From assembly GCF_049075655.1 (NCBI RefSeq), contig NZ_CP157522.1, positions 1,120,001-1,184,000 on the forward strand: a stretch of 64,000 nt of DNA, written 5' to 3'. Position 1 is the stretch's first letter; each line of letters starts with the position of its first letter. The stretch comes from Methanothermococcus sp. Ax23. GTDB lineage: Archaea > AGJL01 > Methanococci > Methanococcales > Methanococcaceae. The translations under genes and the position numbers were made by a program. Under the pieces are notes generated by a model, which had not been told where the DNA came from, made no database searches, and saw only the letters and a list, made by a program, of their open reading frames with translations. Positions 487 to 27,219 of the stretch are shown piece after piece.

Positions 487-3195
487 TTATTTATTTGGCG
501 GTTTTTTATTATTTAGTAGTTTTACAACTTCCATATAGATAAATGTGGAAAAGGATGCAACTAAACATATTATCCAATCTCTTAATCCAAGTGTAGTAAA
601 TTCAAAAATGCCCCTTAAATATGGAGTGTATAAAATAATCAATGTTATTATGGATATAAAAACTACCGCTAAAATCAATATCTTATTCATCGGAGCTCCG
701 ATTTTAAATACTGATTCATCCAATGACCTAAAATTAAAGGTATTAAATATTACCATTCCTACTATTGTTGTAAAAACCATAGTTCTTGCGTATTCTATAT
801 TTGCTATTGGATTGGAAATAATAAATACCATAAATGCCACAAAAGCCATAAAACTGGCTAATTTTATTACTAAAAAAAAGTTTTTTTTAGCCAATATCTC
901 TTGCCCAATCTTTCTCGGCGGTTTGTTCATGACATCCTTTCTTACGGGGTCCATACCCAATGATATAGCAGGGAGCTCCTCGTCAAATGCATTTATAAAT
1001 AAAATTTGTAAAGGCAACAATGGAAGATAGTTAAAACCGTATATTAGTATGCCTATTGATATAAGGATTACCTCTGTAAAATTCCGGGAAATTAGATAGC
1101 AGGTGAATTTTTCTATATTTTCGTATATATTTCTACCGCTTTTAACTGCCTCCACTATCGTGGCAAAATTATCATCTTGGAGAATCATATCGCTGGATTC
1201 TTTTGCGACATCAGTTCCTTTTATGCCCATGGCTATGCCTATATCTGCCATTTTTAAAGCTGGGGCATCATTAACACCATCACCAGTCATAGCCACAATA
1301 TGACCTTTTCTTTTTAGGGTTTTAACAATCTTTAATTTCTGTTCAGGCATGACTCTTGCGTATATCTCCACAACATCCACAAGAGATTCAAATTCTTTTT
1401 CATCTAATATTTCCAGTTCGTTTCCAGTCATAACTCTTTTGACTGTTTTATTATCATCATTATCATCCAACAACCCAATTTTCTTACCTATTGCCTTTGC
1501 AGTTTCTTCATTATCTCCTGTTATCATTATTACCTTTATGCCTGCTTTTTTACAGGTTTCTATTGCCTCTTTTACTCCTTCTCTTGGCGGGTCAGTCATA
1601 CCAACTAAACCTAAAAAAATTAAATCATTTTCAATTTCATCATCTTTTAACGTATTATACTCATAATAATCTTCATTACAAATTTTTTTATATGCCACGC
1701 CAAGAACACGATAGGATGAGCTCGCCAGTTTGTTATTCATCCCAATTATTTTTTCTATTTCATCGGCATTAATTTCCCATATTCCATTGTCCTTTCGAAG
1801 CGAATCCTTCGGATTCGCTGACTTACGAAAACTCGAAGAGTTTTCGTCAAGTTTGATAAATTTGCATTTTTTTAAAATAACTTCCGGAGCTCCTTTTGAA
1901 AATACGATTAACTCATTATTTACATTATTTACCTCATCTACTTTATGAACTGTTGTCATCAATTTTCTTTCGGAACTAAACGCTATTTCTTTTATTCTCG
2001 GGTATCTTTTCTCCAAATTATCTTTCCATAAATCAGCCTTTGCACCAGCAACGATTAATGCCACCTCTGTTGGGTCTCCAATGGAGTCCCATATTCCATC
2101 GGTTTTCCTAATTACTGCATTGTTGCACAAGGAAACAGCCTTTAACAGTAAAACCAAATTTTCCTGAGTATCTACTTTAATATTCTTATCCTCTATAAAA
2201 AATTTCCCTTCTGGTTCATAGCCCTTTCCAGTTATTTCATAGATTTTGCCATCAACAAAAATTTTTTCCACAGTCATTTCATTTTTTGTTAAAGTGCCTG
2301 TTTTATCGGTGCAAATCACAGTAGTTGAACCAAGGGTTTCTACTGCAAGCATCTTTCTTACAACTGCATTATGCTTTGCCATATTGTGCATGCCCACCGA
2401 TAAGGTAAGGGTTAAAGTGAGTGGAAGCCCCTCGGGAACAGCCGCCACTGCAAGGGCAAGTGCAACCATTAACATCTCAGCAATAGGAGCTCCCATAAGA
2501 ATACCAAATCCAAACACCGCAGAACTGGATAATAATGCAATTAATGCCAATGTTCTTCCCAAATTGTGTATTTTTATTTGAAGTGGTGTTTTTTCTTTTT
2601 CATCTTTTTCAATCATATCTGCGATTTTTCCGAGCTCTGTTCTCATACCAGTATTAATTACAATAGCTTCACATTTTCCCCGCACAATCTGAGTTCCAGC
2701 AAAAATTAAGTCCCCCTTGGATTTTTTTACAGCTTTACTTTCTCCCGTTAGTATTGATTCATCAACCTTAAATTCCCCAATTGTATCTATAATTTTTGCA
2801 TCAGCGGGAATTATATCTCCCATTTCTAAAACAAGAACATCTCCGGGAACAACTTCCCTACTGTATATTTCTCTTAATTCCCCATCCCTTATTACCCGAG
2901 TTTTATATTGAACAAATTTTTTTAAAGATTCCATGGCTTTTTCTGCCTTATACTCCTGAATAAATCCCATGATTATAACAAAAATAATTACAAACAATAT
3001 CATCCAAAAATTAAGCACTTCACCAATAAAAATGGATATAGCCATTGCTACAATAAGCACCCACACTAAGAAATTACTCACAAACTGCCGGATTAAAATA
3101 TTAAGCCATGTTATTCTTTTTTTAGCTTTCAACTCATTGTATCCGTATTTTTCCAATCTCTCCTTAGCTTCCCATTCCGTTAAACCCAATGTCAT
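487..3195 (-). CDS. Cation-transporting P-type ATPase (type II, Ca2+-like), with a 19-aa in-frame hairpin insertion
   Basis: TGES, PEGL, DKTGTLT, KGAPE, MITGD and GDGVNDAPAL motifs; likely start MTLGLTE at 3195. Confidence 0.93.
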   Translation of the reverse strand: MTLGLTEWEAKERLEKYGYNELKAKKRITWLNILIRQFVSNFLVWVLIVAMAISIFIGEVLNFWMILFVIIFVIIMGFIQEYKAEKAMESLKKFVQYKTRVIRDGELREIYSREVVPGDVLVLEMGDIIPADAKIIDTIGEFKVDESILTGESKAVKKSKGDLIFAGTQIVRGKCEAIVINTGMRTELGKIADMIEKDEKEKTPLQIKIHNLGRTLALIALLSSSAVFGFGILMGAPIAEMLMVALALAVAAVPEGLPLTLTLTLSVGMHNMAKHNAVVRKMLAVETLGSTTVICTDKTGTLTKNEMTVEKIFVDGKIYEITGKGYEPEGKFFIEDKNIKVDTQENLVLLLKAVSLCNNAVIRKTDGIWDSIGDPTEVALIVAGAKADLWKDNLEKRYPRIKEIAFSSERKLMTTVHKVDEVNNVNNELIVFSKGAPEVILKKCKFIKLDENSSSFRKSANPKDSLRKDNGIWEINADEIEKIIGMNNKLASSSYRVLGVAYKKICNEDYYEYNTLKDDEIENDLIFLGLVGMTDPPREGVKEAIETCKKAGIKVIMITGDNEETAKAIGKKIGLLDDNDDNKTVKRVMTGNELEILDEKEFESLVDVVEIYARVMPEQKLKIVKTLKRKGHIVAMTGDGVNDAPALKMADIGIAMGIKGTDVAKESSDMILQDDNFATIVEAVKSGRNIYENIEKFTCYLISRNFTEVILISIGILIYGFNYLPLLPLQILFINAFDEELPAISLGMDPVRKDVMNKPPRKIGQEILAKKNFFLVIKLASFMAFVAFMVFIISNPIANIEYARTMVFTTIVGMVIFNTFNFRSLDESVFKIGAPMNKILILAVVFISIITLIILYTPYLRGIFEFTTLGLRDWIICLVASFSTFIYMEVVKLLNNKKPPNK
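1795..1851 (-). repeat. Double-hairpin micro-insertion, in frame in the ATPase (57 bp)
   Basis: GC-rich stems AGCGAATCC-ttc-GGATTCGCT and ACGAAAACTC-gaa-GAGTTTTCGT; near-identical copy at 14568-14625. Confidence 0.85.
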
Positions 3196-3323
3196 TGTAT
3201 CACAAAATATATAATAATAAATAAAAACGGTAGTATGATGATAAAAAATAATAAAATATAAAAATATGGAGTATATGGACATATTTTTAAAATTTATACA
3301 TTATTTATGTTTTTTGAACTAAT

Positions 3324-4433
3324 TTACAATCTACTGTATTTGTAAAATATCCTACAAGTTCCTTCATCAGAAACCATACAGCTTCCAATAGGATTTAATG
3401 GATTGCATGGATTTCCAAATAATTTACAATCGCTGGGTAATTTTTCCCCCCTTAGTATTTCACTACATATGCAACCTTTGTTTATTTTTTCCTCTATTTC
3501 TGGGATATCCTCATGCTCAAATATGTCAAATTTTGCATATTTTTCCCTAAGTTTTAAGCCACCTTCTTTTATAATTGGAAAACCTCTCCAAGCAACATCA
3601 GCAGGTTCAAACACTTCGTTTATCATCTTCTGGGCAACCATGTTTCCTTCTTCCCTAACTGCCCTTTTATACTCGTTTTCAACCTTTGCCGTATTGTTTA
3701 TTATCTGCTTCAAAATCATGGCAATTGATACCAAAACATCAAGGGGTTCAAATCCTGCTACAACCATCGGAGCTCCGTATTTTTCACAAGGTTCATAGTA
3801 TGGTTTTAAACCTGTAATTGTTGAAACATGCCCTGGACATATAAATCCATCTATATTTGTTGTTCCTTGACTAAGCAAAAAGTCCATAACTGGTGGTGTT
3901 TGCCTATGACAGTTCAATATATAGAAGTTTGATTCATTTTTATTACCACTTAATTTATTGTTAAGATGTAGGAGCTCCGCGGCTGTTGTTGGTGCTGTGG
4001 TTTCAAAGCCTATGGCTACAAATACAACTTTTCCCTTATTGTTTTCCTTCTGCTCTTTTGCAAGTTTTACTGCATCCCCTATTCCATATACTATCCTTAC
4101 ATCAGCCCCTTCTGATTGAAGTTGCATCAATGATTTTTTACTTCCGGGAACTCTATACATGTCTCCCAATGTGGTTATTGTGTATCCATTTTCAGCCAAA
4201 TAAATTGCAGTATCTATCTCTTTCTGAGTGGTGACACATACTGGACATCCAGGACCTGGTATAACCGTTATATTTTCAGGAAGAACGTCCCTTATTCCAT
4301 ATTTACAGATGGTATGTTCATGAGAACCGCAGACATGCATTATCTTTACATTGTCATCTATTTTACCTGACAGTTTTTTAATAGTATCTATTGATTTTTT
4401 TATCAAAGTTTTGTCGTTGATGTTTATTGCCAT
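3324..4433 (-). CDS. hypD: Hydrogenase maturation protein HypD
   Basis: MHVCGSHE, GPGCPVC, GFETT, PGHVS and the C-terminal CMVSDEGTC motifs. Confidence 0.97.
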   Translation of the reverse strand: MAININDKTLIKKSIDTIKKLSGKIDDNVKIMHVCGSHEHTICKYGIRDVLPENITVIPGPGCPVCVTTQKEIDTAIYLAENGYTITTLGDMYRVPGSKKSLMQLQSEGADVRIVYGIGDAVKLAKEQKENNKGKVVFVAIGFETTAPTTAAELLHLNNKLSGNKNESNFYILNCHRQTPPVMDFLLSQGTTNIDGFICPGHVSTITGLKPYYEPCEKYGAPMVVAGFEPLDVLVSIAMILKQIINNTAKVENEYKRAVREEGNMVAQKMINEVFEPADVAWRGFPIIKEGGLKLREKYAKFDIFEHEDIPEIEEKINKGCICSEILRGEKLPSDCKLFGNPCNPLNPIGSCMVSDEGTCRIFYKYSRL

Positions 4434-4539
4434 AATATCCCTACTGTTTATATAATATTAATATCTTATTAAAAATAAAATGGTTAATCCTATATAAATT
4501 GTTATTTATAAAATTTATAAAAATGTGAAGGTGAAAATT

Positions 4540-4929
4540 ATGTTCCCAGGAAGGATGAATCCAAGGATGTTAAAACAAATGCAGAAGATGATGAAAGATT
4601 TTGGAATGGATGCTGAGGATTTAAAAGCGGTGAAGGTAACAATCGAGTTAGAGGACAAAATACTTGTGTTTGAAAAGCCAAAGGTTCAATTAATGGATAT
4701 GATGGGGACCAAAACATACTCCATAACAGGAAAGGCTAAAAAGATTAAGAAAGAAACAGAGGAAAAACCAGAAGAGAAAATAAAGGATGAAGAAGTTAAA
4801 TTAGATATCACTGATGAAGATATTGAAATGGTAATGAATCAGTGCAATGTTTCAAAAGAAGAGGCTAAAAAGGCATTGGAAGAATGCAACGGAGATATAG
4901 CTGAGGCGATTTTAAAACTAAGTGAATAA
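4540..4929 (+). CDS. nac: Nascent polypeptide-associated complex protein
   Basis: MFPGRMNPR start, NAC domain, C-terminal UBA-like GDIAEAIL. Confidence 0.92.
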   Translation: MFPGRMNPRMLKQMQKMMKDFGMDAEDLKAVKVTIELEDKILVFEKPKVQLMDMMGTKTYSITGKAKKIKKETEEKPEEKIKDEEVKLDITDEDIEMVMNQCNVSKEEAKKALEECNGDIAEAILKLSE

Positions 4930-5010
4930 ATTTATTGAATTTTAAATTATAAATTATTAAACTTATTTTTTTACGATAAACCGCCGAGAAAGCCAACGAT
5001 TTTAATCGTT

Positions 5011-5047
5011 ATACAAAACATAGTTTTGTAAAATCTCTTACGAGATT
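5011..5047. repeat. Double-hairpin insertion (37 bp) within the left-end hairpin
   Basis: TACAAAAC-ata-GTTTTGTA plus AATCTC-ttac-GAGATT; removal restores CCAACGATTTTAATCGTTGG. Confidence 0.7.
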
Positions 5048-5373
5048 GGATGAGAGGCGCACATCATTTTTTTTATATACTCCACTACATAATATATGAG
5101 TGTAATTAGAATAATAGCATATATATAAATTTGGTGAATTCCATGCAAGTAACCAGAGTGCTGACAATAAACCTAACCAGAAGTTTAAATAATGAACAAT
5201 TAATAATCATAAACCATTTAACCTATTCAGCATCAAAACTCTGGAATACATCCAACTACGAAGTAATACAGCGAAACATTAAACCAAATAAAATAGATGT
5301 TCAAATGAAGAACAACTTCTGGTTTAAAAACCTGCACTCACAGTCAGCACAGGCAGTATGTCAAAAACTTCAA

Positions 5374-5420
5374 ATTAGACGAAAACCTTCGGTTTTCGTT
5401 GCTCGCTTGCTACGCAAGCG
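5374..5420 (+). repeat. Double-hairpin micro-insertion, frameshifting tnpB (47 bp)
   Basis: ATTAGA-CGAAAACC ttc GGTTTTCG-TTGC-TCGCTTGC tac GCAAGCG(A). Confidence 0.88.
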
Positions 5421-5813
5421 ATTGCATGGCAAAACTACTTCAAACAACACACTAAAAGACCACGATACCAACCAAAAGATGGACACTTTCCCGTAAAATG
5501 GAAGAAGCAAGGTTTCAAAATCATAGGCAATAAGTTAAGATTATCCTTATCTAAACAAACTAAAAACTATCTCAAAGAGAAGCATGGTATCAAGTGCAGG
5601 TATCTATGGGTAGGGTTATCGAAAACTCTACCGCTTGATACCATGCAGGTTAAAGAAGTTGAGATAGTTCCGCAGACCATCTATGGGATAACCTACTACA
5701 TACTTCACTTAATCCATAAGAAACCAGTAATTCAAGAACCTATCAAAGAAGGTAATATATTAAGTATTGATTTAGGAATTAAGAATTTAGCAACAGCAAT
5801 AACAAACACAGGT

Positions 5814-5861
5814 ATCAGGCGAAAACCTTCGGTTTTCGCTACTCACCAACATCAGTTGGTG
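5814..5861 (+). repeat. Double-hairpin micro-insertion, in frame in tnpB (48 bp, IRRKPSVFATHQHQLV)
   Basis: ATCAG-GCGAAAACC ttc GGTTTTCGC-TAC-TCACCAAC atca GTTGGTG(A). Confidence 0.85.
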
Positions 5862-6550
5862 AAAGCAGTAATCTACGATGGAAGAAGGTTAATTTCTAAA
5901 TTCCGATGGTTTGCTAAAACAAAGGGGAAAATACAGTCTGCACTAACAAAACAGGAGTTAAAGAATAACAAAAGATTATCACACTTAACAGTAAAGGAGA
6001 AAAACTACACTAAGGATTATCTTCATAAGGTCAGTAAGATGATTGTTGATTTTGCAGTAGATAATAAAGTTTCAAGGATTGTAATCGGCGAGTTAAACAA
6101 AGGTATTTCAAATATTAATATTGGTAGAAAGAACAACGAGAAAATACACAAGATACCTTTTGGTAGGTTAGTAAGTATGATACAGTATAAAGCAGAGGAA
6201 AGGGGATTAACAGTAGAACAGGTTAATGAATCTTATACTTCTCAAACTTGTAGTAATTGTGGTGTGGTTAAAAAGAGTAATAGGAAGTATAGGGGTTTGT
6301 ATGTGTGTAGTGAGTGTGGTATGGTTTTGAATGCTGATATTAACGGGGCTTTGAATATTTTAAAAAAAGTATTTTCATGTAGCGTAGCCCTGAACCCGTT
6401 AATGGGTAGGGGTAGTGGGCTTGGCAACCCATGTAGGGTTAGACCCTGCTAAAGAACCCCACGATTTTAATCGTGGGAGTATGTCAGGTTATTAAAAATT
6501 TAAATAAAAATTTAGATAATTTATAACATGCTGAATTATCGGTGAAAAAA

Positions 6551-7900
6551 ATGGATATTGAAGGATATGTAAAAAGATGTTTGGAGAGAAAAACACCTGA
6601 AAATAAAATAATCGAAGATGGATTTAAGAGAGTAATGGAAGTCAAAAAAATAGATGAGGAAATTGCAAAGGAATTTGTTGAGGCAGTAATTCAAGAGGTA
6701 AAAACCACTCAATCCTATAAAAAAATAGACGATGAAAAATTAAAATATATTTTGGACTGTGAGGAATCAGGAGTATCTATGGGAGAGATTGGAGGAGGTA
6801 GTAGAGGAGAAGGAGATTTTTTCATACATAGGCAGATAGCAAGGATAATCGAAAGCACAAATCAAAAAACAGAAGTTGATAGCAGGGAACAGGATGATGC
6901 AGGAGTTGTAAAATCGAACGCAAACTACATAGTTGTTGCAGTTGATGGAACTCATTCAAGATTAAGTGATTTTCCTTTTTTAGCTGGTTTTCATGTCACT
7001 AGGGCATGCCTTAGAGATGTTTTTGTAATGGGTGCAGACCCTGTTGCACTTATAAGTGATATCCATTTAGCAGATGATGGGGATGTATCCAAGATATTTG
7101 ATTTTACAAGCGGTATTTGTGCAGTATCTGAGGCAATAGGCGTTCCATTGGTTGCAGGAAGCACATTAAGAGTTGGGGGAGACATGGTATTGGGAGATAG
7201 AATGGTGAGCTCCGTAGGGGCAATAGGAGTAATTGAAGATAACAAACCAACGGCAAGGAAAAGAGCAGAAGTTGGAGATGTAATTTTAATGACTGAGGGA
7301 AGCGGTGGAGGAACAATATCCACAACGGCATTATATTATGGGATGTTTGATGTAATTTATGAAACACTTAATGTGGATTTTTTAAAGGCATGTAAAAATC
7401 TCATAAAACACGACCTATTGAAATATATCCATGTAATGACTGATGTGACGAACGGAGGACTCAGGGGGGACGCCTACGAAATTTCAAAAACTGCAAATGT
7501 TTCATTGGAGTTTTATAAGGATGAAATATATAGTTTGATAAATCCAAAGGTTTTGGATATGCTGAATAAGTTGAATATTGACCCATTGGGCGTTTCAGTG
7601 GATAGTTTATTGATAATAGCTCCAAAGGAACATGCGGATGAAATCATGGAAAAAACTGGTGCAAAGATAGTTGGAGAAGTAAAGGAAGGAAATACCAGTT
7701 ATTTAATAGATAATGGTAAAAAAATCCCATTGATTCCAGAGTTCAGAGAGGCAGCATACACCCCAGTTAAAAAAGTCGTGGATAAAATGAAGCCCGATAA
7801 AGAAGAATTTGAAATTATGAAGAAAAAGGTTAAAAAGGCATGTGATGAGGCAATTAAAAAGAAGGAATTTGTAAAGGAGTTATTGAATAAAAACATTTAA
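6551..7900 (+). CDS. AIR synthase-related protein (PurM/HypE/ThiL superfamily)
   Basis: QDDAGVV, AVDGTHSRLSDFPFLAGFH and MTDVTNGG motifs. Confidence 0.85.
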   Translation: MDIEGYVKRCLERKTPENKIIEDGFKRVMEVKKIDEEIAKEFVEAVIQEVKTTQSYKKIDDEKLKYILDCEESGVSMGEIGGGSRGEGDFFIHRQIARIIESTNQKTEVDSREQDDAGVVKSNANYIVVAVDGTHSRLSDFPFLAGFHVTRACLRDVFVMGADPVALISDIHLADDGDVSKIFDFTSGICAVSEAIGVPLVAGSTLRVGGDMVLGDRMVSSVGAIGVIEDNKPTARKRAEVGDVILMTEGSGGGTISTTALYYGMFDVIYETLNVDFLKACKNLIKHDLLKYIHVMTDVTNGGLRGDAYEISKTANVSLEFYKDEIYSLINPKVLDMLNKLNIDPLGVSVDSLLIIAPKEHADEIMEKTGAKIVGEVKEGNTSYLIDNGKKIPLIPEFREAAYTPVKKVVDKMKPDKEEFEIMKKKVKKACDEAIKKKEFVKELLNKNI

Positions 7901-8072
7901 TTCATTTTTTATCATTTATCATTATTATTTTTATTATCTATCTGTATCATTTTATTTACCTTTATTCCCTTATTTACTCTCGCATATTACATTTTTCATT
8001 TTTTTATTTTCACAGTTGTGTATGTTATTGACACTACTCAATAATGTATATATAGCTGTTTCATAACATAGT

Positions 8073-8098
8073 AATGTGTAGTAAAAATACTACATATT
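8073..8098. promoter_or_regulatory. Inverted repeat, putative operator of the 8125-12540 operon
   Basis: AATGTGTAGTA-aaaa-TACTACATATT (1 mismatch) lies just downstream of TATA-like ATGTATATATAG; the operon encodes an ArsR-type regulator. Confidence 0.4.
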
Positions 8099-8124
8099 GT
8101 CAAATAATAAAACATGGTGATAAT

Positions 8125-10311: not shown

Positions 10312-10315
10312 GATT

Positions 10316-11822: not shown

Positions 11823-12540
11823 TATTATGGATAAACTACAAACTGTAAGAAAAATAGTCCAGTCGGCATTTTTTATAAAATTTGTAATCTTATCAGCCGT
11901 TCTTTCAAGCTTCTTCTGCCTGTGCATTTTTGGATATATTGAGCAATTCATATTGATGGGGAGTATTTATTTCGTTCCCGTTGTGGTTGTAATATCCTTG
12001 CTCACAATAATTTTTGGAAGAGTATTTTGCGGTTGGATGTGTCCATTGGGTTTTATTTTTGATTTAACATATAAGTTAAGAGTTAAGTTATCAGGGTTAA
12101 AAAAACTTCCAGAAGTTCCAAAAAACATCCACAATAAATTAAAATACTTAAAATATGTTATGTTGGTGTTATTCATTATATTAACATACCATTTTACAAC
12201 ATACGCCTATTGTTCAGTATGTCCTATCGGAGCTCTCACAAACTTATCTGGAACTCTAATTTCATTTGCCATTCTCGTCGGATTTATAGTATTGGGGTTC
12301 ATATATCCCATGGCATTTTGCAGATATTTCTGTCCAATAGGGGCATTACTTGGGCTACTTTCTATAAAACCCATATTTAAATTGAAATTAAATGATAAAT
12401 GTGTAAAATGTAGAATGTGCGAAAGAAAATGTCCAATGCAGATAGAGCTTACTGAAAAAATAGAACAGCATGAATGTATAAGATGCTTTGAATGTATAAG
12501 TTCATGTAGGAAAAAAGGAGTTGATTTTACCTTTAACTGA
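11806..12540 (+). CDS. Membrane 4Fe-4S binding protein (NapH/MauN-like)
   Basis: FCGWMCP, YCSVCP, FCRYFCP and two ferredoxin motifs; its stop codon is supplied by the inserted MITE. Confidence 0.88.
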   Translation: MNFLSDIMDKLQTVRKIVQSAFFIKFVILSAVLSSFFCLCIFGYIEQFILMGSIYFVPVVVVISLLTIIFGRVFCGWMCPLGFIFDLTYKLRVKLSGLKKLPEVPKNIHNKLKYLKYVMLVLFIILTYHFTTYAYCSVCPIGALTNLSGTLISFAILVGFIVLGFIYPMAFCRYFCPIGALLGLLSIKPIFKLKLNDKCVKCRMCERKCPMQIELTEKIEQHECIRCFECISSCRKKGVDFTFN

Positions 12541-12908
12541 CCTACTCCAACGAGTGAACTCGTTGGGTTCTCGCTTACGGTAGTAAGCGAGCAACGAAAT
12601 CACGAAGTGATTTCGTCTAATTTTAGTAGGGTTTAACCCTACACGGGTGGCCAAGCCCACTACCCCTACCCATTAATGGGTTCAGGGCTACGCTATGCAC
12701 TTCCAACCACTACCAGCGGTAGAGTTTTCACTAACCCCACCCATAGATACTTGGACTGGTAGCGTTACTTACTACTAATCTTCATATATTTATATTTTAC
12801 TACTTACTAGCCGATATAATGTCCGCCTCTCATCCAATCTCGTAAGAGATTTTACAAAACTATGTTTTGTATAACGACTGAAGTCGTTGGCTTTCCCGGC
12901 GGTTTATC
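12537..12908 (-). mobile_element. Non-autonomous IS605-derived element (372 bp, subfamily A)
   Basis: Same left end after TTTAC and same GTCAG right end as 4975-6487; no ORF. Confidence 0.92.
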
Positions 12909-12989
12909 GTAAATCTTAATATTCATTATTTTACTTATTTTATTTTTTATTTATTAACCTTTGTATATCTTTTTCTTGTTATATTTTTA

Positions 12990-14251: not shown

Positions 14252-14567
14252 ACTATCACATTTTATATTATTTAGGATAATAATATAATATTTTATTTTA
14301 AAATGGTGGTATTATGGAAGTGTATTATTCGATAATAGATAATTATGATTCATTAGATAATAATGTAGAGATACTAAATAAAACCTTCGAATCCATTAAT
14401 TTAAATGAATTTGATAAAATACTTATAAAGCCAAATGTTTTAGGACCTTATCCACCAAATAGATGTGCAACAACTCATCCAAAATTTTTAGAGTGGATTT
14501 TGAAATATTTGATTGATACTAAGAACATAGACGCCAATAAAATCATTGTAGGGGACTCATCGGGATA

Positions 14568-14625
14568 TCGAAGCGAATTCTATTGAATTCGCTGACTTAC
14601 GAAAACTCTTCGAGTTTTCGTCAAG
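14568..14625 (-). repeat. Double-hairpin micro-insertion, frameshifting (58 bp)
   Basis: Homologous to 1795-1851; excision gives ..GDSSGY|STKKSFEV.. Confidence 0.88.
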
Positions 14626-15160
14626 TTCTACAAAAAAATCCTTTGAAGTATCTGAGCTCAGAAAAGCATGTGAAAAATACAATGTAAAGCATCTTTCATT
14701 TGAAAACGATGAAGTTATAAAAACAAAAATACTAAATAGTGAAATAACACTTCCAAAAACCGTTGTAGATAGTGATTTGATAATAAATCTCCCAAAATTA
14801 AAAACCCACATACTTATGAAATACACTGGGGCAGTTAAAAACCTATATGGATGTATTCCCGGTGGATTGAAGCCAAAACTTCATGGTGTCTATCCAAAGG
14901 AAAATGATTTTGCAAAGTTATTGGTAGAGCTCCACAACACCATAATAAAAGATAAAGAAACAATTACCATAATGGATGGAATCTATGGGATGGAAGGAAA
15001 TGGACCAAGCAATGGAAAACCTATAAATTCAAAAATAGTAATTGCCTCAAAAAGTTCTGTTGCTGTTGATTTATTTGCATCCTATTACATAGGATACAAT
15101 CCCAACGATATTTTAACATATAGGTTTTTAGATGATGGTGTTGAGTATGAACTCATACAT

Positions 15161-15536
15161 CTGACCTACTCCAACGAGTGAACTCGTTGGGTTCTCGCTT
15201 ACGGTAGTAAGCGAGCAACGAAATCACGAAGTGATTTCGTCTAATTTTAGTAGGGTTTAACCCTACACGGGTGGCCAAGCCCACTACCCCTATCTCCGTT
15301 TAGGAGATTCAGGGCTACCTTTTGAATTTCCAAACACTACCAGCGGTAGAGTTTTCGATAACCCTACCCATAGATACTTGGACTGGTAGCGTTACTTACT
15401 ACTAATCTTCACATATTTATATTTTACTACTTACTAGCCGATATAATGTCCCGCCTCTCATCCAATCTCATAAGAGATTTTACAAAACTATGTTTTGTAT
15501 AACGATTAAAATCGTTGGCTTTCTCGGCGGTTTATC
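15161..15536 (-). mobile_element. Non-autonomous IS605-derived element (376 bp, subfamily B)
   Basis: Near-identical to 26844-27219; excision restores the host frame CAT|GTA AAT, which fixes the ends and the TTTAC target. Confidence 0.93.
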
Positions 15537-15572
15537 GTAAATAACAATAAAACCGAAAAAATCTCAAAATTA

Positions 15573-19495: not shown

Positions 19496-19509
19496 AAACA
19501 GGTGATATT

Positions 19510-20424
19510 ATGGATGAAGTATATGATTTAATAATAATTGGTGGAGGTCCTGCGGGATTAACAGCGGGAATATATGCAATGAGGGCAAAATTAAACACTC
19601 TTTGTATAGAGAAAGAGAATGAAGGGGGAAAAATAGCAGAAGCAGGAATTGTGGAAAACTATCCTGGATTTGACAATATAAGAGGTTTTGAGTTAGCTCA
19701 AAAATTCGTAGAACATGCAAAGAAATTTAATTTAAATATTACTCATGATACAATTAAAAAAATCGACACATCAGATAGACCCTTCAAGGTAATTGGGGAA
19801 AATAACACATATACTGCAAAAGCCATAATAATAGCAACGGGAACAAAGGATAAAAAATTGGGATTAAATGAAGATGATTTCGTTGGAAGGGGGGTGAGCT
19901 ACTGCACAACCTGTGATGCATTCTTCTACTTGAACAAGGAGGTAATAGTTGTTGGAAGGGGAACTCCTGCGGTTATGTCTGCATTGAATTTAAAGGACAT
20001 TGTGAAAAAGGTAACTGTGATTACAGATAAGGAGGAGCTCAGGGCTGCTGAAAGTATTATGATGGAAAGATTAAACAGTGCTGAAAACATAGAAGTAATT
20101 ACCAATGCAAAACCTTTAAAAATACTGGGTAGTGATAAAGCAGAGGGTGTTTTGGTATCAATCGACGGAGAAGAAAAGGAAATAAAAGCAGACGGTATTT
20201 TTATAAGCATGGGGCATATACCAAACTCTGAATTCTTAGAAGGTAGCGGCATAGAATTAAATAAAAGTGGGTTTGTGGTAGTGGATAAATCATGCAAGAC
20301 AAATATTGATGGTATATTTGCCTGCGGAGATATTGCAGGAGGGGTTTTACAGGTATCCAAAGCAGTTGGTGAAGGTGCAGTTGCACTTGCCAGTGCTTCA
20401 AAGTATCTAAACAGTTTAAAATAA
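19510..20424 (+). CDS. trxR: Thioredoxin reductase, probably F420-dependent (DFTR-type)
   Basis: GGGPAG, CTTCD and GIFACGD motifs; the NADPH motif GGGxxA is replaced by GRGTPA. Confidence 0.88.
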
Positions 20425-20445
20425 TAATATGGAAACGGCGATAGC

Positions 20446-20838
20446 ATGGATAATTATTCTAAATTATTAATATTAATCCCTCTATTTTTTATAGTATTGA
20501 TTATGGGATGCATAAGTGCTAAACCTGCTATCTCCACTAATGATGGTATCTCATCAAATGCAGGTTTAAATAATGAAAATAAAACGGTCGTTCTTGAATT
20601 TTATGCCGACTGGTGCGGATACTGTAAGGCTCTTGAACCTACAATAAACAGTCTTGAAAAAGAAGGTATTGAGGTTATAAAAATAGATACCGATGCAAAT
20701 CCAGATTTGGCTAACCAGTATGGTGTAAGGGCATTACCTACAATTATATATGTTAAAGATGGAAAAGTTGTTGATAAAACCATAGGATATAATCCAGAAG
20801 AAATAAAAGAAAAGGCTAAGAATTTGTATAATCAATGA
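20446..20838 (+). CDS. Thioredoxin-family lipoprotein
   Basis: Lipobox IMGC, WCGYC active site, cis-Pro LPT. Confidence 0.9.
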   Translation: MDNYSKLLILIPLFFIVLIMGCISAKPAISTNDGISSNAGLNNENKTVVLEFYADWCGYCKALEPTINSLEKEGIEVIKIDTDANPDLANQYGVRALPTIIYVKDGKVVDKTIGYNPEEIKEKAKNLYNQ

Positions 20839-20904
20839 CTGTTTTTAATCGTTGCTCTCTTTTTATTTTTATAAAACCTTTTTTGCATTATTAAAGGTGG
20901 AAGT

Positions 20905-21567
20905 ATGGATTTAATTTTAATTTTCATTGCAGGGATTTTTACGGCATTGGGGCCCTGTGTCATGACTGTGCTACCTGTTGTATTTGCATACACATTTGGA
21001 ATTTCTGAATCAAAAACCGAAGCATTTATAATATCTTTAAGCTTTGTTCTGGGATTTTCCATAGTTTTTAGTTTGTTGGGGGCACTTTCATCAGCATTTG
21101 GAATTATTGTAGGGTTCTCGAATATAAAATATTTAGCAGGAGCTCTGGCTATATTATTCGGTATAATGATATTGTTTAAAAAAGGTTTTTCGTTTAGGTC
21201 GAAACAGAATCCATTTACAAAAATTATAAAAAAATTTAATAAACAGGTATCATTTAAATACAAAGTATTAACTTCAATTGTATTGGGAGTATCTTATGGA
21301 TTTGGTGCAAATGTATGTGCAGACCCTGTTTTAGCAGGTATATTAACATATACAGCTTCAAAAGCGGATGTAATATTTGGATTTTTTGCACTACTAATTT
21401 ATTCGCTGGGTTATGGACTTCCCATAGTATTGTTAAGTGTGGCTGGTGCAGAAGGTAAAAAAATCCTTGAAAATATTGCAGATTCTAAAATAGCAAATGT
21501 AATATCGGGGATAATACTTATAATACTGGGAATTTATCTAATCTTTGGTGTGGCTGTCGGATTATAA
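20905..21567 (+). CDS. ccdA: CcdA/DsbD-type membrane disulfide-transfer protein
   Basis: GPCVMTVLP and second Cys (VCADP), six TM segments. Confidence 0.88.
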   Translation: MDLILIFIAGIFTALGPCVMTVLPVVFAYTFGISESKTEAFIISLSFVLGFSIVFSLLGALSSAFGIIVGFSNIKYLAGALAILFGIMILFKKGFSFRSKQNPFTKIIKKFNKQVSFKYKVLTSIVLGVSYGFGANVCADPVLAGILTYTASKADVIFGFFALLIYSLGYGLPIVLLSVAGAEGKKILENIADSKIANVISGIILIILGIYLIFGVAVGL

Positions 21568-21639
21568 GTCTGAAAGTTTTATTTTAATGGTGGATTTTAA
21601 AAAAATGGTGAAATAAAAACATATGTTAATTCTTTAAGG

Positions 21640-21676
21640 AAGCGAGCAGCGAAAAACCTAAGGTTTTTCGTCTAAT
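21640..21676 (-). repeat. Truncated double-hairpin element
   Basis: Minus strand reads ATTAGACGAAAAACC tta GGTTTTTCGCTGCTCGCTT; the second stem has lost its 3' arm. Confidence 0.75.
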
Positions 21677-21772
21677 GTTGGATTTATTACAAACTTTTTA
21701 TTGCAGTTTTTACATGGTATTTTTGTATTACTACTCCATTTGAGGTTGTGTATTTCCCACATCACTTACTTT

Positions 21773-21857
21773 CTGACCTACTCCAACGGGTGAACTCGTT
21801 GGGTTCTCGCTTACGGTAGTAAGCGAGCAACGAAATCACGAAGTGATTTCGTCTAAT
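21773..21857 (-). mobile_element. 85-bp fragment: nested double hairpin plus IS605 right end
   Basis: Matches the MITE right end (1 substitution) and stops exactly at the ATTAGAC boundary of the nested hairpin element. Confidence 0.88.
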
Positions 21858-21977
21858 ATAACAGTGTTGTTTGAATTACAATGTATACAGTTCAACTGGA
21901 AACACCACTTAGTTTTTTATAATACTTGGGTATCCAGTATTTATTTAAACCTTTTCAAAAAATAAAATAATATAAAT

Positions 21978-23444
21978 TTATGCATTTTTGGATTTCCATT
22001 CATTCAATATTTTTTCCCAGTTGTTCTTCAAGAAATCACCCACCTGTGAGGAATCCCTTGTTCCAACTACGCATGTCCACCCAGTTTTTTCTTCAATATC
22101 TCCTCTTGCAGGAGCTGCCAATCCTGGGAGTATTATTATCTTATGATTTACCTTTTCCGCTACACCGGTTTCTTCTATAAGGTTCTTAGCATTTTCACCG
22201 CAGTATTGACCACCAGCAACTGCAACATCCACCGCTTTACCTTCTGTATCCATCGATAAGAGCCAGCATTTAACACCATCTTTCTCAAAGTCTCCTGTTA
22301 CCGTGTAGAATGTTAATGAGAAGTTCGTAGTCATAATTACAGGGCTGTTTTCATCTGGGTTTCCTATTGGATATAATCCAGGTTCAACTGCCTGAGGTTT
22401 TCTTGGGTCGGTATATATTGCCTGTCTAAGTGTAAGTATTGGCATTAATTCCCATACCTCAGTTCCATGGAGAATCATTACATCGGCATACCTATTCAAC
22501 ATTGCATTTGCCGTTCTGGCTTCCATAACTCCTGCGGCTTTGTCAGGTTCTTCTATAAATTGATTTATTGGATTATTTCCATTTAAAACATACATATAGG
22601 TGTTTATTGGGAGTCCCAATATTGGGTATCCCAATAATTTATCCCCTCGTTCTATTGCACTTCTTCTTATCATTACAAACTTATCAAGTGTTTCTGCAAT
22701 GTTTTCAGGTGTTGTGTGAGGGTCTAAAACCAAATCTTCAATACTATACTTAACGCATTCCTTAGCCATGCCCTTTAATGTTTTTATATCATCTGAGGAT
22801 AAAACTAGTGCAAACTCCTTTCCAGCTTCTTTCTTTGCTATCAGCATTTTAAGGAGCTCTGCAAAGTTATCCTTTGTAGCTGCATAAATCATAGGTTTTG
22901 ATTTAACAACATCCAAAGCTTTTTCTATATTATCGGGATTAAGTGAGCATAATGCAATAGGCAACTTTGTAGCTTCCTGAACAATCTCAACTGCCTTTTT
23001 AAACTTTTCAGGGTCATTAGATGCGTTCCTTATGGCAACGAAATCCAATTTTAATTTTTCCCCAGTTCTTTCAAATACAAAATCCTCAACATATTTTGCC
23101 CTGCTTTTTATTTCCTCTTCTGATAAATTATCTGATATATCTACACCAAGGGGAGTCTGGTTGAAAAATGAGAGCTCATACCTATACATTACCTCGTCTC
23201 CACCCATGACACATTTTTTATCTGAATGACCAAACCAAACTTCCTTTACAGGTGGGGATAGCATCTCTATAAGTTTCTTTTTATTTTTTTCAAATTTTGG
23301 CGTGTTCATTATAGGGCAGTGTTCAACCATTGCCTTTTTATTCTGCAATTTTGTTGCAAAAGCCATACAGGAAGATTCGCCACATTTTTTACAATTCGTT
23401 TTTGGTAGGAGTTTATAAATATCCATAGCACTTACTTTTGCCAT
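21978..23444 (-). CDS. cdhE: ACDS complex gamma subunit (corrinoid FeS protein large subunit)
   Basis: LPKTNCKKCGESSCMAFA, IYTDPRKP and TTNFSLT motifs. Confidence 0.95.
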   Translation of the reverse strand: MAKVSAMDIYKLLPKTNCKKCGESSCMAFATKLQNKKAMVEHCPIMNTPKFEKNKKKLIEMLSPPVKEVWFGHSDKKCVMGGDEVMYRYELSFFNQTPLGVDISDNLSEEEIKSRAKYVEDFVFERTGEKLKLDFVAIRNASNDPEKFKKAVEIVQEATKLPIALCSLNPDNIEKALDVVKSKPMIYAATKDNFAELLKMLIAKKEAGKEFALVLSSDDIKTLKGMAKECVKYSIEDLVLDPHTTPENIAETLDKFVMIRRSAIERGDKLLGYPILGLPINTYMYVLNGNNPINQFIEEPDKAAGVMEARTANAMLNRYADVMILHGTEVWELMPILTLRQAIYTDPRKPQAVEPGLYPIGNPDENSPVIMTTNFSLTFYTVTGDFEKDGVKCWLLSMDTEGKAVDVAVAGGQYCGENAKNLIEETGVAEKVNHKIIILPGLAAPARGDIEEKTGWTCVVGTRDSSQVGDFLKNNWEKILNEWKSKNA

Positions 23445-23562
23445 TATTATCACCAATAAATAGATATGGAGTAATATAATGAGTAATAGATGATAGATAA
23501 ATTAAATGAACAATTAATAATAAATGAATAAGCTGGAAATATGGGGGTAATAAATAATAATA

Positions 23563-24753
23563 TTATGCCCTTATCCATTCGTAATTGTCCGTGTTTATTT
23601 TTACCTCTCCCGGTTTTGTAATTAGTGTTTTACCAAATTCTTTTAATACTGATATTGAAAGTGGGTGAAGCATCATGAATATATCTACACCACTTAAAAG
23701 CATAGTTAAACCTGTTGTAATTTCCCATAATGGAAGCCTGTATGTCCTATCGCCCCATTCAGGGTTTGCCATCCATGCTTCCCTTGCCCCAATGGCGTTT
23801 GTTGTTCCTGATGACATTGGCATATTTACGAGCTCATCCCCTTTCAATCCTGCCAACCTTAATCTTGTCATGGCATTTATTGAGAATTCAGCACCATATC
23901 CCAATGAACAGGTTGTTGGGTCCATTACAATCCTATCTCCATCAAGTCCATGGGATATTAATTTCCTGTTTAAGTCCTTAGCCATGTTTGGGTCCATAAT
24001 TGTCCATGATAGCACATTGTGGTCGTATTTCATAGCAGCATCTGCAACCTTTTTATAATCTAAATCAAGGTTTGCCGATGCAAGTAAGCACTTTTCTCCC
24101 TCTGCAACTTCTGCACATGCTTCCAATACTATTGGGTCTTTTTTAGGGTCACCACTACCTCCAATTACAAATGGAACATCCACTGCCTGCAATAACTCTT
24201 CCATTAATTTAGCAGCATCTCTTGCAGGAGTATCTTTTATTTTTGGGTCTGTTGATATGTGGTGTATTGTAATCATATCTGCCCCAAATTCTTTCACACA
24301 CTTTTTAGCCCATTCAGCAGGGTCGTGCATGACATCCTCAAAATACTGCCTAACATTTTTTGGAAGTCCTGGCATAGGCATGTCAAATATATCAAATGTT
24401 ACCACAGGTGCATGTGGCTGAGGTTCTTCAAATCTATACAATGCCTTTTGACCTCCAATTTTTACAACTTTTCCTCTTCCTCCTTCTGATTTTGGTTTTC
24501 CAAACTGAACTTCTCGTATATATCCTTTGTATTCATTTATTGGAGTTTCCCAATCTACTTCTGGAATTTCTATTTTCAATTCTTTACTTAATCCGGCTTC
24601 TACAAGTGTTTCTTTTAGTGCTGGTGTTTGAGGTATTACCACAGGTGGAGCCGATGGTATATTTATTACCAGTTCATCTGCGGTAATCTCAATATTGTCT
24701 ATTTCTACCCTACCTACTTTTTCCACTAGTTTTATTAGTGCATCAAAGTCCAT
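23563..24753 (-). CDS. cdhD: ACDS complex delta subunit
   Basis: DPAEWAKKCV, IGGSGDP, MDPTTCSLGYG and MMLHP motifs. Confidence 0.95.
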   Translation of the reverse strand: MDFDALIKLVEKVGRVEIDNIEITADELVINIPSAPPVVIPQTPALKETLVEAGLSKELKIEIPEVDWETPINEYKGYIREVQFGKPKSEGGRGKVVKIGGQKALYRFEEPQPHAPVVTFDIFDMPMPGLPKNVRQYFEDVMHDPAEWAKKCVKEFGADMITIHHISTDPKIKDTPARDAAKLMEELLQAVDVPFVIGGSGDPKKDPIVLEACAEVAEGEKCLLASANLDLDYKKVADAAMKYDHNVLSWTIMDPNMAKDLNRKLISHGLDGDRIVMDPTTCSLGYGAEFSINAMTRLRLAGLKGDELVNMPMSSGTTNAIGAREAWMANPEWGDRTYRLPLWEITTGLTMLLSGVDIFMMLHPLSISVLKEFGKTLITKPGEVKINTDNYEWIRA

Positions 24754-25015
24754 ATAATCACCGAAAAATCTATCATTATAAATCATTACAAATTAATAGA
24801 TATTCTAAAAAAAGTTATATATAAATCTTTTGAATGAGGCGATATCATAAAGCTTAAAATAAGCTATTAAAGATTAATTAAAGATATATTTCTCAATTAT
24901 AAACATTTTTTTAAGTATTATAGAATAGAAAAAGATATATATTAGAAATTATAATGGTTAAAAGGAGCCGTAAAATAATTATGGTTGAATAATATAAATA
25001 GTAATACTATAATGT

Positions 25016-25104
25016 GGCGCGGGGTGCTGTGCCTGGTGGCACAGGGCGGACTTCAGATCCGTCAAGTTCGTTTGAACTCGGGGTTCGATTCCCCCCCAGC
25101 GCCG
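25016..25104 (+). tRNA. selC: tRNA-Sec (UCA anticodon)
   Basis: 9-bp acceptor stem (one G.A mismatch), long D stem, anticodon loop CTTCAGA, long variable arm, 4-bp T stem with TTCGATT, G discriminator, followed by a T-run; upstream TATAAATA. Confidence 0.93.
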
Positions 25105-25149
25105 TTTTTTATATATGTCTATTTTATTTTCCAGTGTTTGAGGGGAATT

Positions 25150-26103
25150 ATGAAAAAAATATATTCCAAAACTGGTGATTTATCAGATTTTAAAAATGCC
25201 ATTTCTTTTTTGCAAGACTTTACTGGATTTATAAAAATAGATAATGGAATGTTATTTTATATTGATTCAAAACTAACGTTCTCAATCTGGGGTGGAAAGA
25301 AATCTGACTTAAAAACAATATTGAAAAACCTACCTGATATATTTTCAATTGAAATATATAAATGTTCAAATGAAGACATTAAAAAAGTTATAGATAGTGA
25401 ATTAAATAGTAATTCCACACCAACTGCCTCAAAACCTGAGCTCCTAAATGAAATATATGGGTCAATATCATCTAATGTAAAACCAGACGTAAATGCTGAA
25501 AATGGCATTTCAATAAACCTATATACAAATATATATAATTATGTGGGAATAGGATTATACGAAGTAATTTTAATACCGAAAAGATACAAATCCGATAAAG
25601 GAACATTGATATTCAAAAACTGTGATGAACTATTTGCCATATATGAGTCGAAAAATAAAACACTTGAAGGAAAAAAAGCACTTGGAAAAATAAAAACTGT
25701 GTTTGCAGTTAGTGAAATTACCGCATTTATTAAGAAAATACCCCTTAACACATTTAATAGTTATGTGGAAAAATACTCCAATGCTCTTTTAAAAACTCAA
25801 GTATCATTTGAGGAATTAATTAAAAAAATAAAAGAAAAAGGAACTAAAATAATTAAAAATGATTCATTGGTAAATGTTTTAACAGAAAAACCCTCATTAA
25901 TAGAAATCGATAAAAATATGTATATTGTATCCAACGAAAAAAAACCTGTTTATGCATTTTTTGAAGACTATGATGGAGATAAAGCATACAGATATATTAA
26001 AAATTTCTGCATTTTTAACGATATCGAAATTAAAATATACCCTCTTGATAACGATGAGTTTAAGTTGTTCAAAGAATTTCAAGAAAATAGAATAAAACAG
26101 TAG
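25150..26103 (+). CDS. DUF2226-like hypothetical protein
   Basis: True start after RBS GAGGGG; FTGFIKI motif; the ORF-track extension through the tRNA is spurious. Confidence 0.6.
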   Translation: MKKIYSKTGDLSDFKNAISFLQDFTGFIKIDNGMLFYIDSKLTFSIWGGKKSDLKTILKNLPDIFSIEIYKCSNEDIKKVIDSELNSNSTPTASKPELLNEIYGSISSNVKPDVNAENGISINLYTNIYNYVGIGLYEVILIPKRYKSDKGTLIFKNCDELFAIYESKNKTLEGKKALGKIKTVFAVSEITAFIKKIPLNTFNSYVEKYSNALLKTQVSFEELIKKIKEKGTKIIKNDSLVNVLTEKPSLIEIDKNMYIVSNEKKPVYAFFEDYDGDKAYRYIKNFCIFNDIEIKIYPLDNDEFKLFKEFQENRIKQ

Positions 26104-26160
26104 AACGATAAATAAAACGCAATATAAGCAGTAGTAAATAAGTAGTATGTAATATCTAAT

Positions 26161-26748
26161 TTATTTTGAATCTTTGAATATATTCTTCATATAGTATTTA
26201 CTATATAGAGTTCCCCCCGGATTATGTGCTAAAATTCTATCCTTAACTAAAAATGTTGTTGCAGGGGCTCTTGAATATTTTTGAAATAATATGTCATGTC
26301 CAATACACAGACCTACAATAATGTTTAAATCTGTCTCTTTTTCATTTAAAATTTCAGCCTGAGCTATGGGATTGCACATGGATTCTCTATTGTTGGGATT
26401 TATTTTTGTTAGGTTGAGCTTATCCTTATCAATTCCGCAAACTTTGCAACATACGGAGTATGTTTTAAAATAGTTTGATAAAATCTTATCCAAAGTTTTT
26501 GCTTCATTTTCCAATCCAATACAGAAAACTATTCCAATTTTTTTACATTCCATCAATTTACAAAATTCTATAATCTCTTCCAATCTGTTCTTTTTCATAT
26601 AGTAAGTTCCTTCAATGTATGATGAAACTGTTGCTATTTTTAAATTTTCATCTTTTTTATATTCTTTCATGACCTTTTCGCTAATTTCTTTTTTACAGCA
26701 GTTTTTTCCATCTGCACATAATTTTTTATCGCATACTGCACATTTCAT
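26161..26748 (-). CDS. DUF1847 Cys-rich metal-binding protein
   Basis: FCIGL, CCKVCG, MCNPIAQA and GLCIGHD motifs. Confidence 0.85.
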   Translation of the reverse strand: MKCAVCDKKLCADGKNCCKKEISEKVMKEYKKDENLKIATVSSYIEGTYYMKKNRLEEIIEFCKLMECKKIGIVFCIGLENEAKTLDKILSNYFKTYSVCCKVCGIDKDKLNLTKINPNNRESMCNPIAQAEILNEKETDLNIIVGLCIGHDILFQKYSRAPATTFLVKDRILAHNPGGTLYSKYYMKNIFKDSK

Positions 26749-26843
26749 TGTTTTACCTTTCTTTATTATATGTTTGTTTAAATATATTTATACATCCATT
26801 ACTTTGAAAATAAACTTATCAACAATTAAAAACTAGATTTTAC

Positions 26844-27219
26844 GATAAACCGCCGAGAAAGCCAACGATTTTAATCGTTATACAAAACATAGTTTTGTAA
26901 AATCTCTTACGAGATTGGATGAGAGGCGGGACATTATATCGGCTAGTAAGTAGTAAAATATAAATATGTGAAGATTAGTAGTAAGTAACGCTACCAGTCC
27001 AAGTATCTATGGGTAGGGTTATCGAAAACTCTACCGCTGGTAGTGTTTGGAAATTCAAAAGGTAGCCCTGAATCTCCTAAACGGAGATAGGGGTAGTGGG
27101 CTTGGCCACCCGTGTAGGGTTAAACCCTACTAAAATTAGACGAAATCACTTCGTGATTTCGTTGCTCGCTTACTACCGTAAGCGAGAACCCAACGAGTTC
27201 ACTCGTTGGAGTAGGTCAG
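26844..27219 (+). mobile_element. Non-autonomous IS605-derived element (376 bp, subfamily B)
   Basis: TTTAC|GATAAACCGCC...GTAGGTCAG; internal TATA at 26955-26966. Confidence 0.93.

Follow-up and report, generated by a model that had tools for sequence, protein, structure and literature searches.

A 64,000-nt stretch of the Methanothermococcus sp. Ax23 genome (the window; C1:1120001-1184000) contains genes for a P-type ATPase and a DUF362 protein, a tnpB-only insertion sequence (IS) and several of its miniature inverted-repeat transposable element (MITE) derivatives, and every one of these harbors at least one short element made of two adjacent hairpins. The elements, 47–58 nt long, form a discrete family defined by its structure, with two subfamilies, A and B. 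The subfamilies were found by a hairpin scan and profile searches, and covariance models were built from 16 non-redundant A copies (R1) and nine non-redundant B copies (R2). The genome (G000; 1.67 Mb in two contigs, 32% GC, 98.9% complete) was compared with 30 relatives (the other G numbers), which are not independent of one another; several of the genomes lacking elements are incomplete assemblies. The elements of the window and the features that host them are:

487-3282, minus strand: cation-transporting P-type ATPase gene, 931 aa (Pfam E1-E2_ATPase, Cation_ATPase, Hydrolase, Cation_ATPase_C)
1795-1851, minus strand: B element, 57 nt, R2 86.4 bits, in frame and in sense orientation in the P-type ATPase gene
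4969-6487, plus strand: tnpB-only IS of the IS200/IS605 kind (Pfam OrfB_IS605 and Cas12f1-like_TNB; copies found by BLAST), with two A elements
5374-5421, plus strand: A element at tnpB site a, R1 74.7 bits, net insertion of 47 nt, frameshift
5814-5862, plus strand: A element at tnpB site b, R1 60.7 bits, net insertion of 48 nt, in frame
12571-12621, minus strand: A element at MITE site c, R1 64.3 bits, within MITE 12537-12916
14314-15181, plus strand: DUF362 gene, interrupted by the B element at 14568-14625
14568-14625, minus strand: B element, 58 nt, R2 79.1 bits, antisense in the DUF362 gene
15195-15245, minus strand: A element at MITE site c, R1 64.3 bits, within MITE 15155-15541
21626-21676, minus strand: truncated A element, R1 29.9 bits; hairpin 1 is whole, hairpin 2 keeps its 5' arm only
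21807-21857, minus strand: A element in a MITE fragment, R1 64.3 bits; the fragment (21772-21857) matches positions 387-472 of the MITE query in BLAST and is the element plus the MITE right end
27135-27185, plus strand: A element at MITE site c, R1 64.3 bits, just 5' of the right-end hairpin of MITE 26838-27220

An earlier reading of this DNA from its letters (the sequence-only reading) had proposed such a family; all members that it named are present, and the models and folding confirm their two-hairpin structure. Most of its coordinates stand, but the full hairpins at sites a and b end one base later than it had placed them, at 5421 and 5862, and the truncated copy, given as 21640-21676, spans 21626-21676 in the model. 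The A copies at 12571-12621, 15195-15245 and 21807-21857 were absent from its list.

Subfamily A (48–51 nt) begins A-TTAGAC and finishes GCGA; subfamily B (~57 nt) begins CTTGAC and finishes TTCGA. Hairpin 1 is common to both. Composites of ~105 nt, in which one or two extra hairpins lie between A hairpins 1 and 2, occur at C1:910361-910464, 1263308-1263409, 1048244-1048340 and 1541074-1541179 of this genome, and one B element is nested in an A element. The shared hairpin and the three- and four-hairpin composites show that the hairpin modules are interchangeable. Element GC ranges from 0.28 to 0.48, against 0.32 for the genome, and the hairpins are described as GC-rich in an AT-rich genome. 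The two ends of an element are not related as inverted repeats, and none of five filled/empty sites shows a target duplication, which sets the elements apart from classical MITEs and agrees with the earlier proposal that they lack terminal inverted repeats (TIRs). A distinct hairpin-containing repeat with the same first-hairpin stem is present in three identical copies (C1:200929-200975, 337713-337759 and 1309760-1309806), possibly as part of a multi-copy RNA operon.

All window elements fold into two adjacent hairpins with RNA or DNA parameters and on either strand. Fold Z-scores range from −4.2 to −9.4, with at most one of 200 shuffles folding equally well. To this the alignments add covariation, as the sequence-only reading had expected from stems that differ while pairing is kept; these alignments were made by fitting to the model structures and therefore lean towards structure:

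A alignment: 31 distinct rows, 92.8% of cells paired, 12 of 17 pairs changed on both sides, reached by 0 of 500 shuffles; slid controls 28–45% paired
B alignment: 19 distinct rows, 98.1% of cells paired, 11 of 22 pairs changed on both sides, reached by 0 of 500 shuffles; slid controls 21–50% paired

Covariation thus lies above all 500 column shuffles and all slid controls in both subfamilies. At site b, four stem 2 pairs are altered in a compensatory manner. G-T cells are rare (7 of 516 in A, 2 of 415 in B) and no commoner than A-C/C-A mismatches (19 and 5), so the pairing constraint is equal on both strands. The three-base hairpin loops come as reverse-complement pairs, TTC/GAA and AAA/TTT. 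In orthologous methyltransferase-like genes of G027 and G015 a B element occupies the same site, in frame, with both loops flipped and the remaining 51 bases identical; these six changes, all within the six loop bases, are hard to reach by point mutation. The near absence of G-T pairs and the flipped loops point to a palindrome maintained at the DNA level rather than to an RNA structure. Loop inversion and arm-to-arm correction are expected products of template switching on a DNA palindrome.

The host gene of this flipped pair (~372–385 aa; L055 in G015, L056 in G027) shows few differences between the two genomes. In the families of G015 and G027 the ATPases are ~67–69% identical to that of the window, and the few differences in the methyltransferase-like gene, with a B insert at one and the same site in both genomes, suggest that the gene was transferred horizontally.

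The hairpins could instead serve the host as terminators, RNA stabilizers or protein-binding sites. Strong hairpins with T-runs on one arm and the many intergenic copies are what such signals would look like, but copies also lie within conserved genes in both orientations, where orthologues do without them; their loops are unconserved and flip, and their distribution among relatives is patchy. An Rfam scan of the window returned no family matching the double-hairpin elements. We consider a host-serving role very improbable. The sole Rfam match in the window was a tRNA-Sec gene (25016-25103, plus strand, RF01852, 64.5 bits).

Elements in host genes and in the resident tnpB insertion sequence

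The sequence-only reading held that the elements had entered genes cleanly, and comparison with orthologues bears this out. The ATPase insert, 57 nt in frame and equivalent to 19 extra residues, is missing in all eight orthologues examined. G012, the closest relative (88% identity), has a run of A at the empty DNA site, and the element lies inside this run with no duplication. In the DUF362 gene the 58-nt insert shifts the frame by +1 and brings a stop in the loop of hairpin 2. All five DUF362 orthologues examined are continuous across the site, and removal of the element restores the conserved junction, as had been claimed. The other frame assignments of that reading (57 nt in frame in the ATPase; 47 nt out of frame and 48 nt in frame in tnpB) also hold.

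We then removed each independent element of the genome in silico and sought a spanning open frame. Eight inserts lie in host genes; seven of them (45, 48, 54, 57, 57, 57 and 57 nt) are in frame and open, the DUF362 insert being the sole exception. The four B inserts share one phase and would encode closely similar peptides; in two A inserts the shared hairpin 1 lies in the corresponding phase. Such a bias in frame and phase is expected if the inserts are translated and counts against their general removal from RNA, so the proposal that the elements add peptides is well matched by the open frames. The proposal that they also kill genes applies to the DUF362 reading frame and to a DDE transposase gene (helix-turn-helix and rve domains) of G017, in which two identical 48-nt A copies each insert a net 47 nt and each bring a TAG stop; it is questionable for tnpB (below). 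The first of the two G017 inserts recurs in G030 in a copy of the same DDE-transposase IS, there a decayed fragment, so that the same IS with the same insert is found in two genera.

The tnpB IS is present in ~10 copies, alongside at least 22 full-length MITE derivatives, which join the left end of the IS to its 3' end through a 43-bp piece from within tnpB. TTAC precedes every MITE copy and the IS of the window. In nine alignable IS copies, site a (47 nt) is filled in seven and empty in two, site b (48 nt) is filled in three, and site c (50–51 nt, in the right-end region) is likewise filled in three; the combinations of filled sites are incompatible with a single tree. A tenth, more distant tnpB copy (C1:946125-947400, minus strand) has an intact 426-aa frame with an in-frame 45-nt variant 21 nt downstream of site a, made of hairpin 1 and a non-palindromic tail, which adds a fourth insertion site in the IS. 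Mosaic identities of the IS copies make it evident that ectopic gene conversion has taken place between IS and MITE copies.

The sequence-only reading had placed an element in every MITE. This holds for the three full MITEs and the one fragment in the window, but genome-wide 18 of 22 full-length copies carry the site c element and four are empty, each with a seamless junction. On a MITE tree computed with the element columns left out, the four empty copies are scattered, and well-supported (starred) branches force at least three changes of state. The scatter indicates that the state has switched precisely and more than once, whether through excision, through insertion or through conversion of short tracts. 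The present activity implied by the earlier description of the elements as an active micro-transposon is no more than a possibility: most independent copies are diverged, and most multi-copy sets ride in larger repeats.

Spread, flanking sequence and candidate mobilizers

In this genome R1 yields 47 A matches at E < 1e-8, namely seven at site a, three at site b, 23 at site c and 14 at unrelated loci, which together represent 17 independent loci; R2 yields nine B matches at E <= 5e-17 and weaker ones. Scanning the relatives with the models, as the sequence-only reading had suggested, detected A elements in 17 of the 30, covering four of five genera, and B elements in six of the 30; judged by these matches, the family is order-wide. 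G013, where no Y1 match occurs, has 24 A matches and 68 B matches, with some B copies in tandem (head-to-tail pairs at C1:238725-238839 and 1108777-1108891). The A pattern had no matches in viral contigs, and 28 viral matches to a B 16-mer were set aside as chance because none passes the B model. A pattern scan of a genome collection returned only five stretches, far below the yield of the genome searches, and is uninformative on distribution. One whole A element lies on scaffold JASGMZ010000002.1 (L081), which is labelled as a Bacteroidales metagenome-assembled genome and is probably a mis-binned Methanococcales contig.

Junctions are seamless, with one or two ambiguous bases, in line with the small ambiguity noted earlier. 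An A precedes the elements: 31 of 32 A rows start with A, and in 15 of 18 B rows an A stands before the model start. Four bases past the 3' end (+4), C is found in 33 of 50 rows from this genome and its relatives, and in 27 of 42 after duplicate loci were removed by eye, against a genomic C frequency of 0.16. In A elements the four bases between the two hairpins also end in C. The left end shows no fixed 4–5 nt target 5' of the element beyond this A, in contrast to the TTAC before the resident MITE.

These properties are reminiscent of the palindrome-associated derivatives of IS200/IS605 elements and of REP/BIME sequences, which are moved by Y1 HUH enzymes (TnpA, RAYT), lack TIRs and target duplications, have hairpins near both ends and are excised seamlessly. 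The elements could accordingly be read as minimal derivatives of this type (PATE- or REP-like), whose two hairpins a Y1 HUH transposase would recognize on single-stranded DNA and then excise and paste, the enzyme having since been lost from this genome. The seamless junctions, the lack of TIRs and target duplications, the hairpin near each end and the scattered precise losses or gains on the MITE tree are all compatible with such a mechanism. The resident IS and MITEs are themselves of the IS200/IS605 type: they have the TTAC flank, and related tnpB genes stand beside a Y1 tnpA in G015, G020, G025 and G028, so an enzyme of this kind acted in the lineage. Y1 matches occur in six of the 31 genomes, and all six carry A elements. 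However, only three of them have an intact 144-aa gene, and 12 of the 18 carriers, including G013 and G017, have no match. The 98.9%-complete genome under study has no PF01797 (Y1) match, although the same search was positive in 6 of 14 named control genomes. The co-occurrence is further weakened by the non-independence of the genomes and the incompleteness of many non-carriers, and the left target consists of a single A. When the 16 independent A loci are compared with the extremes of cumulative GC skew, at 170 and 820 kb, no clear strand pattern emerges, the numbers being small and the origin not established. The suggestion of the sequence-only reading that a Y1/HUH enzyme moves the elements thus fits the junctions and the six Y1-bearing genomes, but not the many carriers without a match or the missing target. 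We regard descent from IS200/IS605 elements with a lost enzyme as a serious though less probable alternative; as for the mobilizer itself, a Y1 HUH enzyme acting in trans or in the past is tentatively the leading candidate.

Dedicated transposition may not be needed at all if a few ancient insertions were spread by hitchhiking, gene conversion and horizontal transfer, with palindrome-driven replication errors (template switching, slippage) creating, perfecting, flipping and deleting hairpins. In its favour, the one site c copy carried by MITEs and IS accounts for 23 of the 47 strong A matches, and sites a and b for ten more. G015 had been considered as an example of a recent burst next to an intact Y1 gene, but three sets with shared flanks on both sides take in 14 of the 16 copies retrieved; because these copies ride in larger repeats, the burst was dropped. 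Mosaic IS copies, loops that flip in situ and the DDE-transposase IS with the same insert in two genera point the same way. Against this, the genome by itself holds at least 17 A and nine B loci that are independent and have unrelated flanks, a single IS has been entered at four different sites, identical 48-nt A copies occur at unrelated sites in three genera, and the flanks are biased to A before the element and C at +4. Precise loss with one base of flanking homology is, moreover, improbable three times by slippage. We judge spread without transposition to be improbable.

The reading that we prefer, with a probability of about 0.6, is that the elements are non-autonomous selfish palindromic DNA elements of the MJRE kind (MJRE being palindromic repeats of Methanocaldococcus jannaschii), which move as folded single-stranded DNA through a trans-acting activity not encoded in this genome. 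The data show that the elements enter and leave DNA seamlessly, with neither TIRs nor target duplication, that insertion follows an A, with C enriched at +4, that pairing changes are alike on both strands and that loops invert in place. In the model, in-frame landings in a stop-free phase would persist in host genes and be read as inserts of 15–19 residues; other landings would shift the frame. Many copies would multiply only by riding in the resident IS200/IS605-type IS and MITEs. The palindrome would be preserved in the DNA itself, by way of hairpins in single strands or of cruciforms and by template switching from one arm to the other. Movement would take place as folded single-stranded DNA, and the activity would act in trans, with a Y1 HUH transposase as the best mechanistic candidate.

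Frameshifted tnpB copies

The seven tnpB copies with the 47-nt frameshift at site a look selected. Their frame is otherwise intact (408–409 codons), with no stops where ~10.8 would be expected. Pairwise ratios of non-synonymous to synonymous change (dN/dS) are 0.12–0.26 both upstream and downstream of the insert, and the 185 variable sites are distributed 42/36/107 over the codon positions, a tally that takes in the 75 codons from the insert to the first canonical start. Private changes comprise 15 synonymous and 12 non-synonymous ones, against a random expectation of 21% synonymous. The element itself is identical in all seven copies, and no other 47-nt stretch of the IS is free of variable sites among them. 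Four substitutions within ~15 nt downstream of site a (window 5422-5440) are common to all seven filled copies and distinguish them from three unfilled ones; they could mark a co-conversion tract or reflect local adaptation.

The canonical 48-nt A copy at least, if not all elements, could therefore be transparent to expression: a mobile coding gap that is cut from RNA, or across which the ribosome shifts or hops, leaving the host gene active. The seven diverged yet apparently constrained copies, the invariant element within them and the DUF362 halves, both otherwise open, would fit such a gap. There are also ordinary explanations for the signature. The copies are mosaic, and conversion from an intact tnpB can import selected variation; the element may also have spread recently into tnpB copies that had already diverged. 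Removal would make it unnecessary for seven of eight host-gene inserts to be in frame and stop-free, and the G030 transposase gene with the same copy as G017 has decayed.

For a view of the RNA, contigs from two RNA-library runs and two runs of unrecorded kind were aligned to the window. Contig joints that skip elements at sites a, b and c match empty paralogues of the same genome and are explained by them, since the letters in between agree with those copies. In run X1, a metatranscriptome from a community sample, one contig joins 5373 to 5421 and so leaves out 47 nt exactly; its depth is 9.8, and its shorter side has 27 bases. This joint is seen only in X1, not in X2, X12 or X13; the community may hold empty IS alleles, and RNA libraries can contain DNA. 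No skipping joint was found at the DUF362 element, where the RNA-library runs have near-zero depth. In both runs of unrecorded kind, contigs are interrupted at 1795, where the ATPase element ends, which we read as branching of the assembly graph at a repeat.

Specific routes to transparency were considered and dropped. A bulge-helix-bulge intron is not predicted: when flanks are included, folding yields the two internal hairpins alone and no such motif at the junctions. Two programmed −1 shifts in the G017 transposase would find a plausible slippery motif upstream of hairpin 1 at the first site and none at the second, and the G030 copy is decayed. Coding gaps that ribosomes bypass are known as the byps of Magnusiomyces mitochondria. 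A mobile coding-gap element that is bypassed by ribosomes is described for phage T4 gene 60 (bioRxiv 10.1101/2022.08.31.505936). The likeness to both lies in ~50-nt hairpin inserts in coding sequence that break the frame if read conventionally; the difference is that no matched take-off and landing codons are consistent over both flank haplotypes of the tnpB site. By inspection, a hop between matched codons fits one haplotype of site a and fails the other. In our estimate, transparency has a low probability.

The movement model and its relation to known elements

Several observations weigh against seamless movement of selfish elements as we propose it. The selected look of the frameshifting tnpB copies is not accounted for by an insertion that kills the gene. 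Gene conversion could give the scattered filled and empty states with neither excision nor insertion. Arm-to-arm template switching could yield compensatory-looking changes in the absence of selection, and the covariation alignments, besides being fitted to the model structures, consist of mutually related sequences. Translation of the in-frame inserts is suggested by their open frames. No mobilizing enzyme was found and no movement was seen in real time. Finally, divergence is the rule among independent copies, and identical sets mostly lie inside larger repeats, in G015 as in this genome, so transposition may be ancient.

The comparison that the sequence-only reading drew with MJRE and with the palindromic elements of Rickettsia (RPE) is apt. 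MJRE are reportedly short dispersed palindromic repeats of M. jannaschii, diverged within groups, some of which lie in coding regions without disrupting them. The present family probably belongs with them by description: it consists of short dispersed palindromic repeats in Methanococcales (47 A and nine B strong matches in the genome), some copies of which occupy coding regions without loss of frame (seven in-frame, open host-gene inserts). The genus with a record named Methanocaldococcus has A-model matches in 10 of its 12 genomes. The MJRE paper is not known to report filled/empty pairs, nesting in IS or MITEs, order-wide spread, strand-symmetric covariation, loop flipping, frameshifted transposase genes or flank bias.

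Three further kinds of element bear comparison. Derivatives of IS200/IS605 (PATE/REP) share end hairpins, seamless junctions and the lack of TIRs and target duplications, and the host IS and MITEs belong to the same family; in contrast, our elements have no fixed tetra- or pentanucleotide target and no Y1 in this genome or in 12 of 18 carriers, and they appear to be tolerated within genes and read in an open frame. RPE are described as palindromic, ~150 bp long, in frame in unrelated housekeeping genes and encoding a conserved peptide, with an unknown transposase (PMC10969869). As portrayed there, they resemble our elements as palindromic inserts in frame in unrelated genes that encode peptides, but are bacterial, longer and unrelated in sequence, whereas ours have 47–58 nt, two perfect hairpins and out-of-frame copies too. 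The palindromic GC clusters of yeast mitochondria and the double-hairpin elements of Allomyces (Paquin et al. 2000, cited in PMC4478555) are ~40–50 nt long, with modules that merge and shuffle. The same source reports interspecies exchange and co-conversion of flanks for GC clusters, by a mechanism left unresolved (PMC4478555). On that account the likeness, of analogy and not homology, is in GC-rich hairpin modules that merge and shuffle in an AT-rich genome. Short direct repeats (AG/ACT) flank the clusters, whereas ours show none beyond one ambiguous A, reside in an archaeal host and include peptide-coding copies in chromosomal genes.

Literature searches, which left most subscription journals and supplements outside their coverage, returned no description of these elements in Methanothermococcus or nested in tnpB elements. 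The new details are the seamless filled/empty pairs, the DNA-level signature, loop flipping, the flank bias, the poor fit of a resident Y1 and the apparently selected frameshifted tnpB.

Palindromic repeats that write peptides are known from Rickettsia, M. jannaschii and mitochondria, and their mode of movement is still unknown. The genome described here is a clean test bed for it, with filled and empty copies of the same site side by side, seamless junctions, a DNA signature and a measurable flank bias; the candidate enzyme family, Y1 transposases like those of the co-resident IS type, occurs in only some of the relatives. If the frameshifting copies are indeed read through or removed, they would represent a new example of mobile-element-linked recoding or RNA excision. 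Loss of the element from RNA, or a ribosomal −1 shift or hop across it, would be new for archaea, and so would precise homing of the element into one site of already diverged IS copies. The elements also invade the gene of an RNA-guided nuclease, tnpB, and the scaffold region by the MITE right end, which may matter for the mining of archaeal TnpB.

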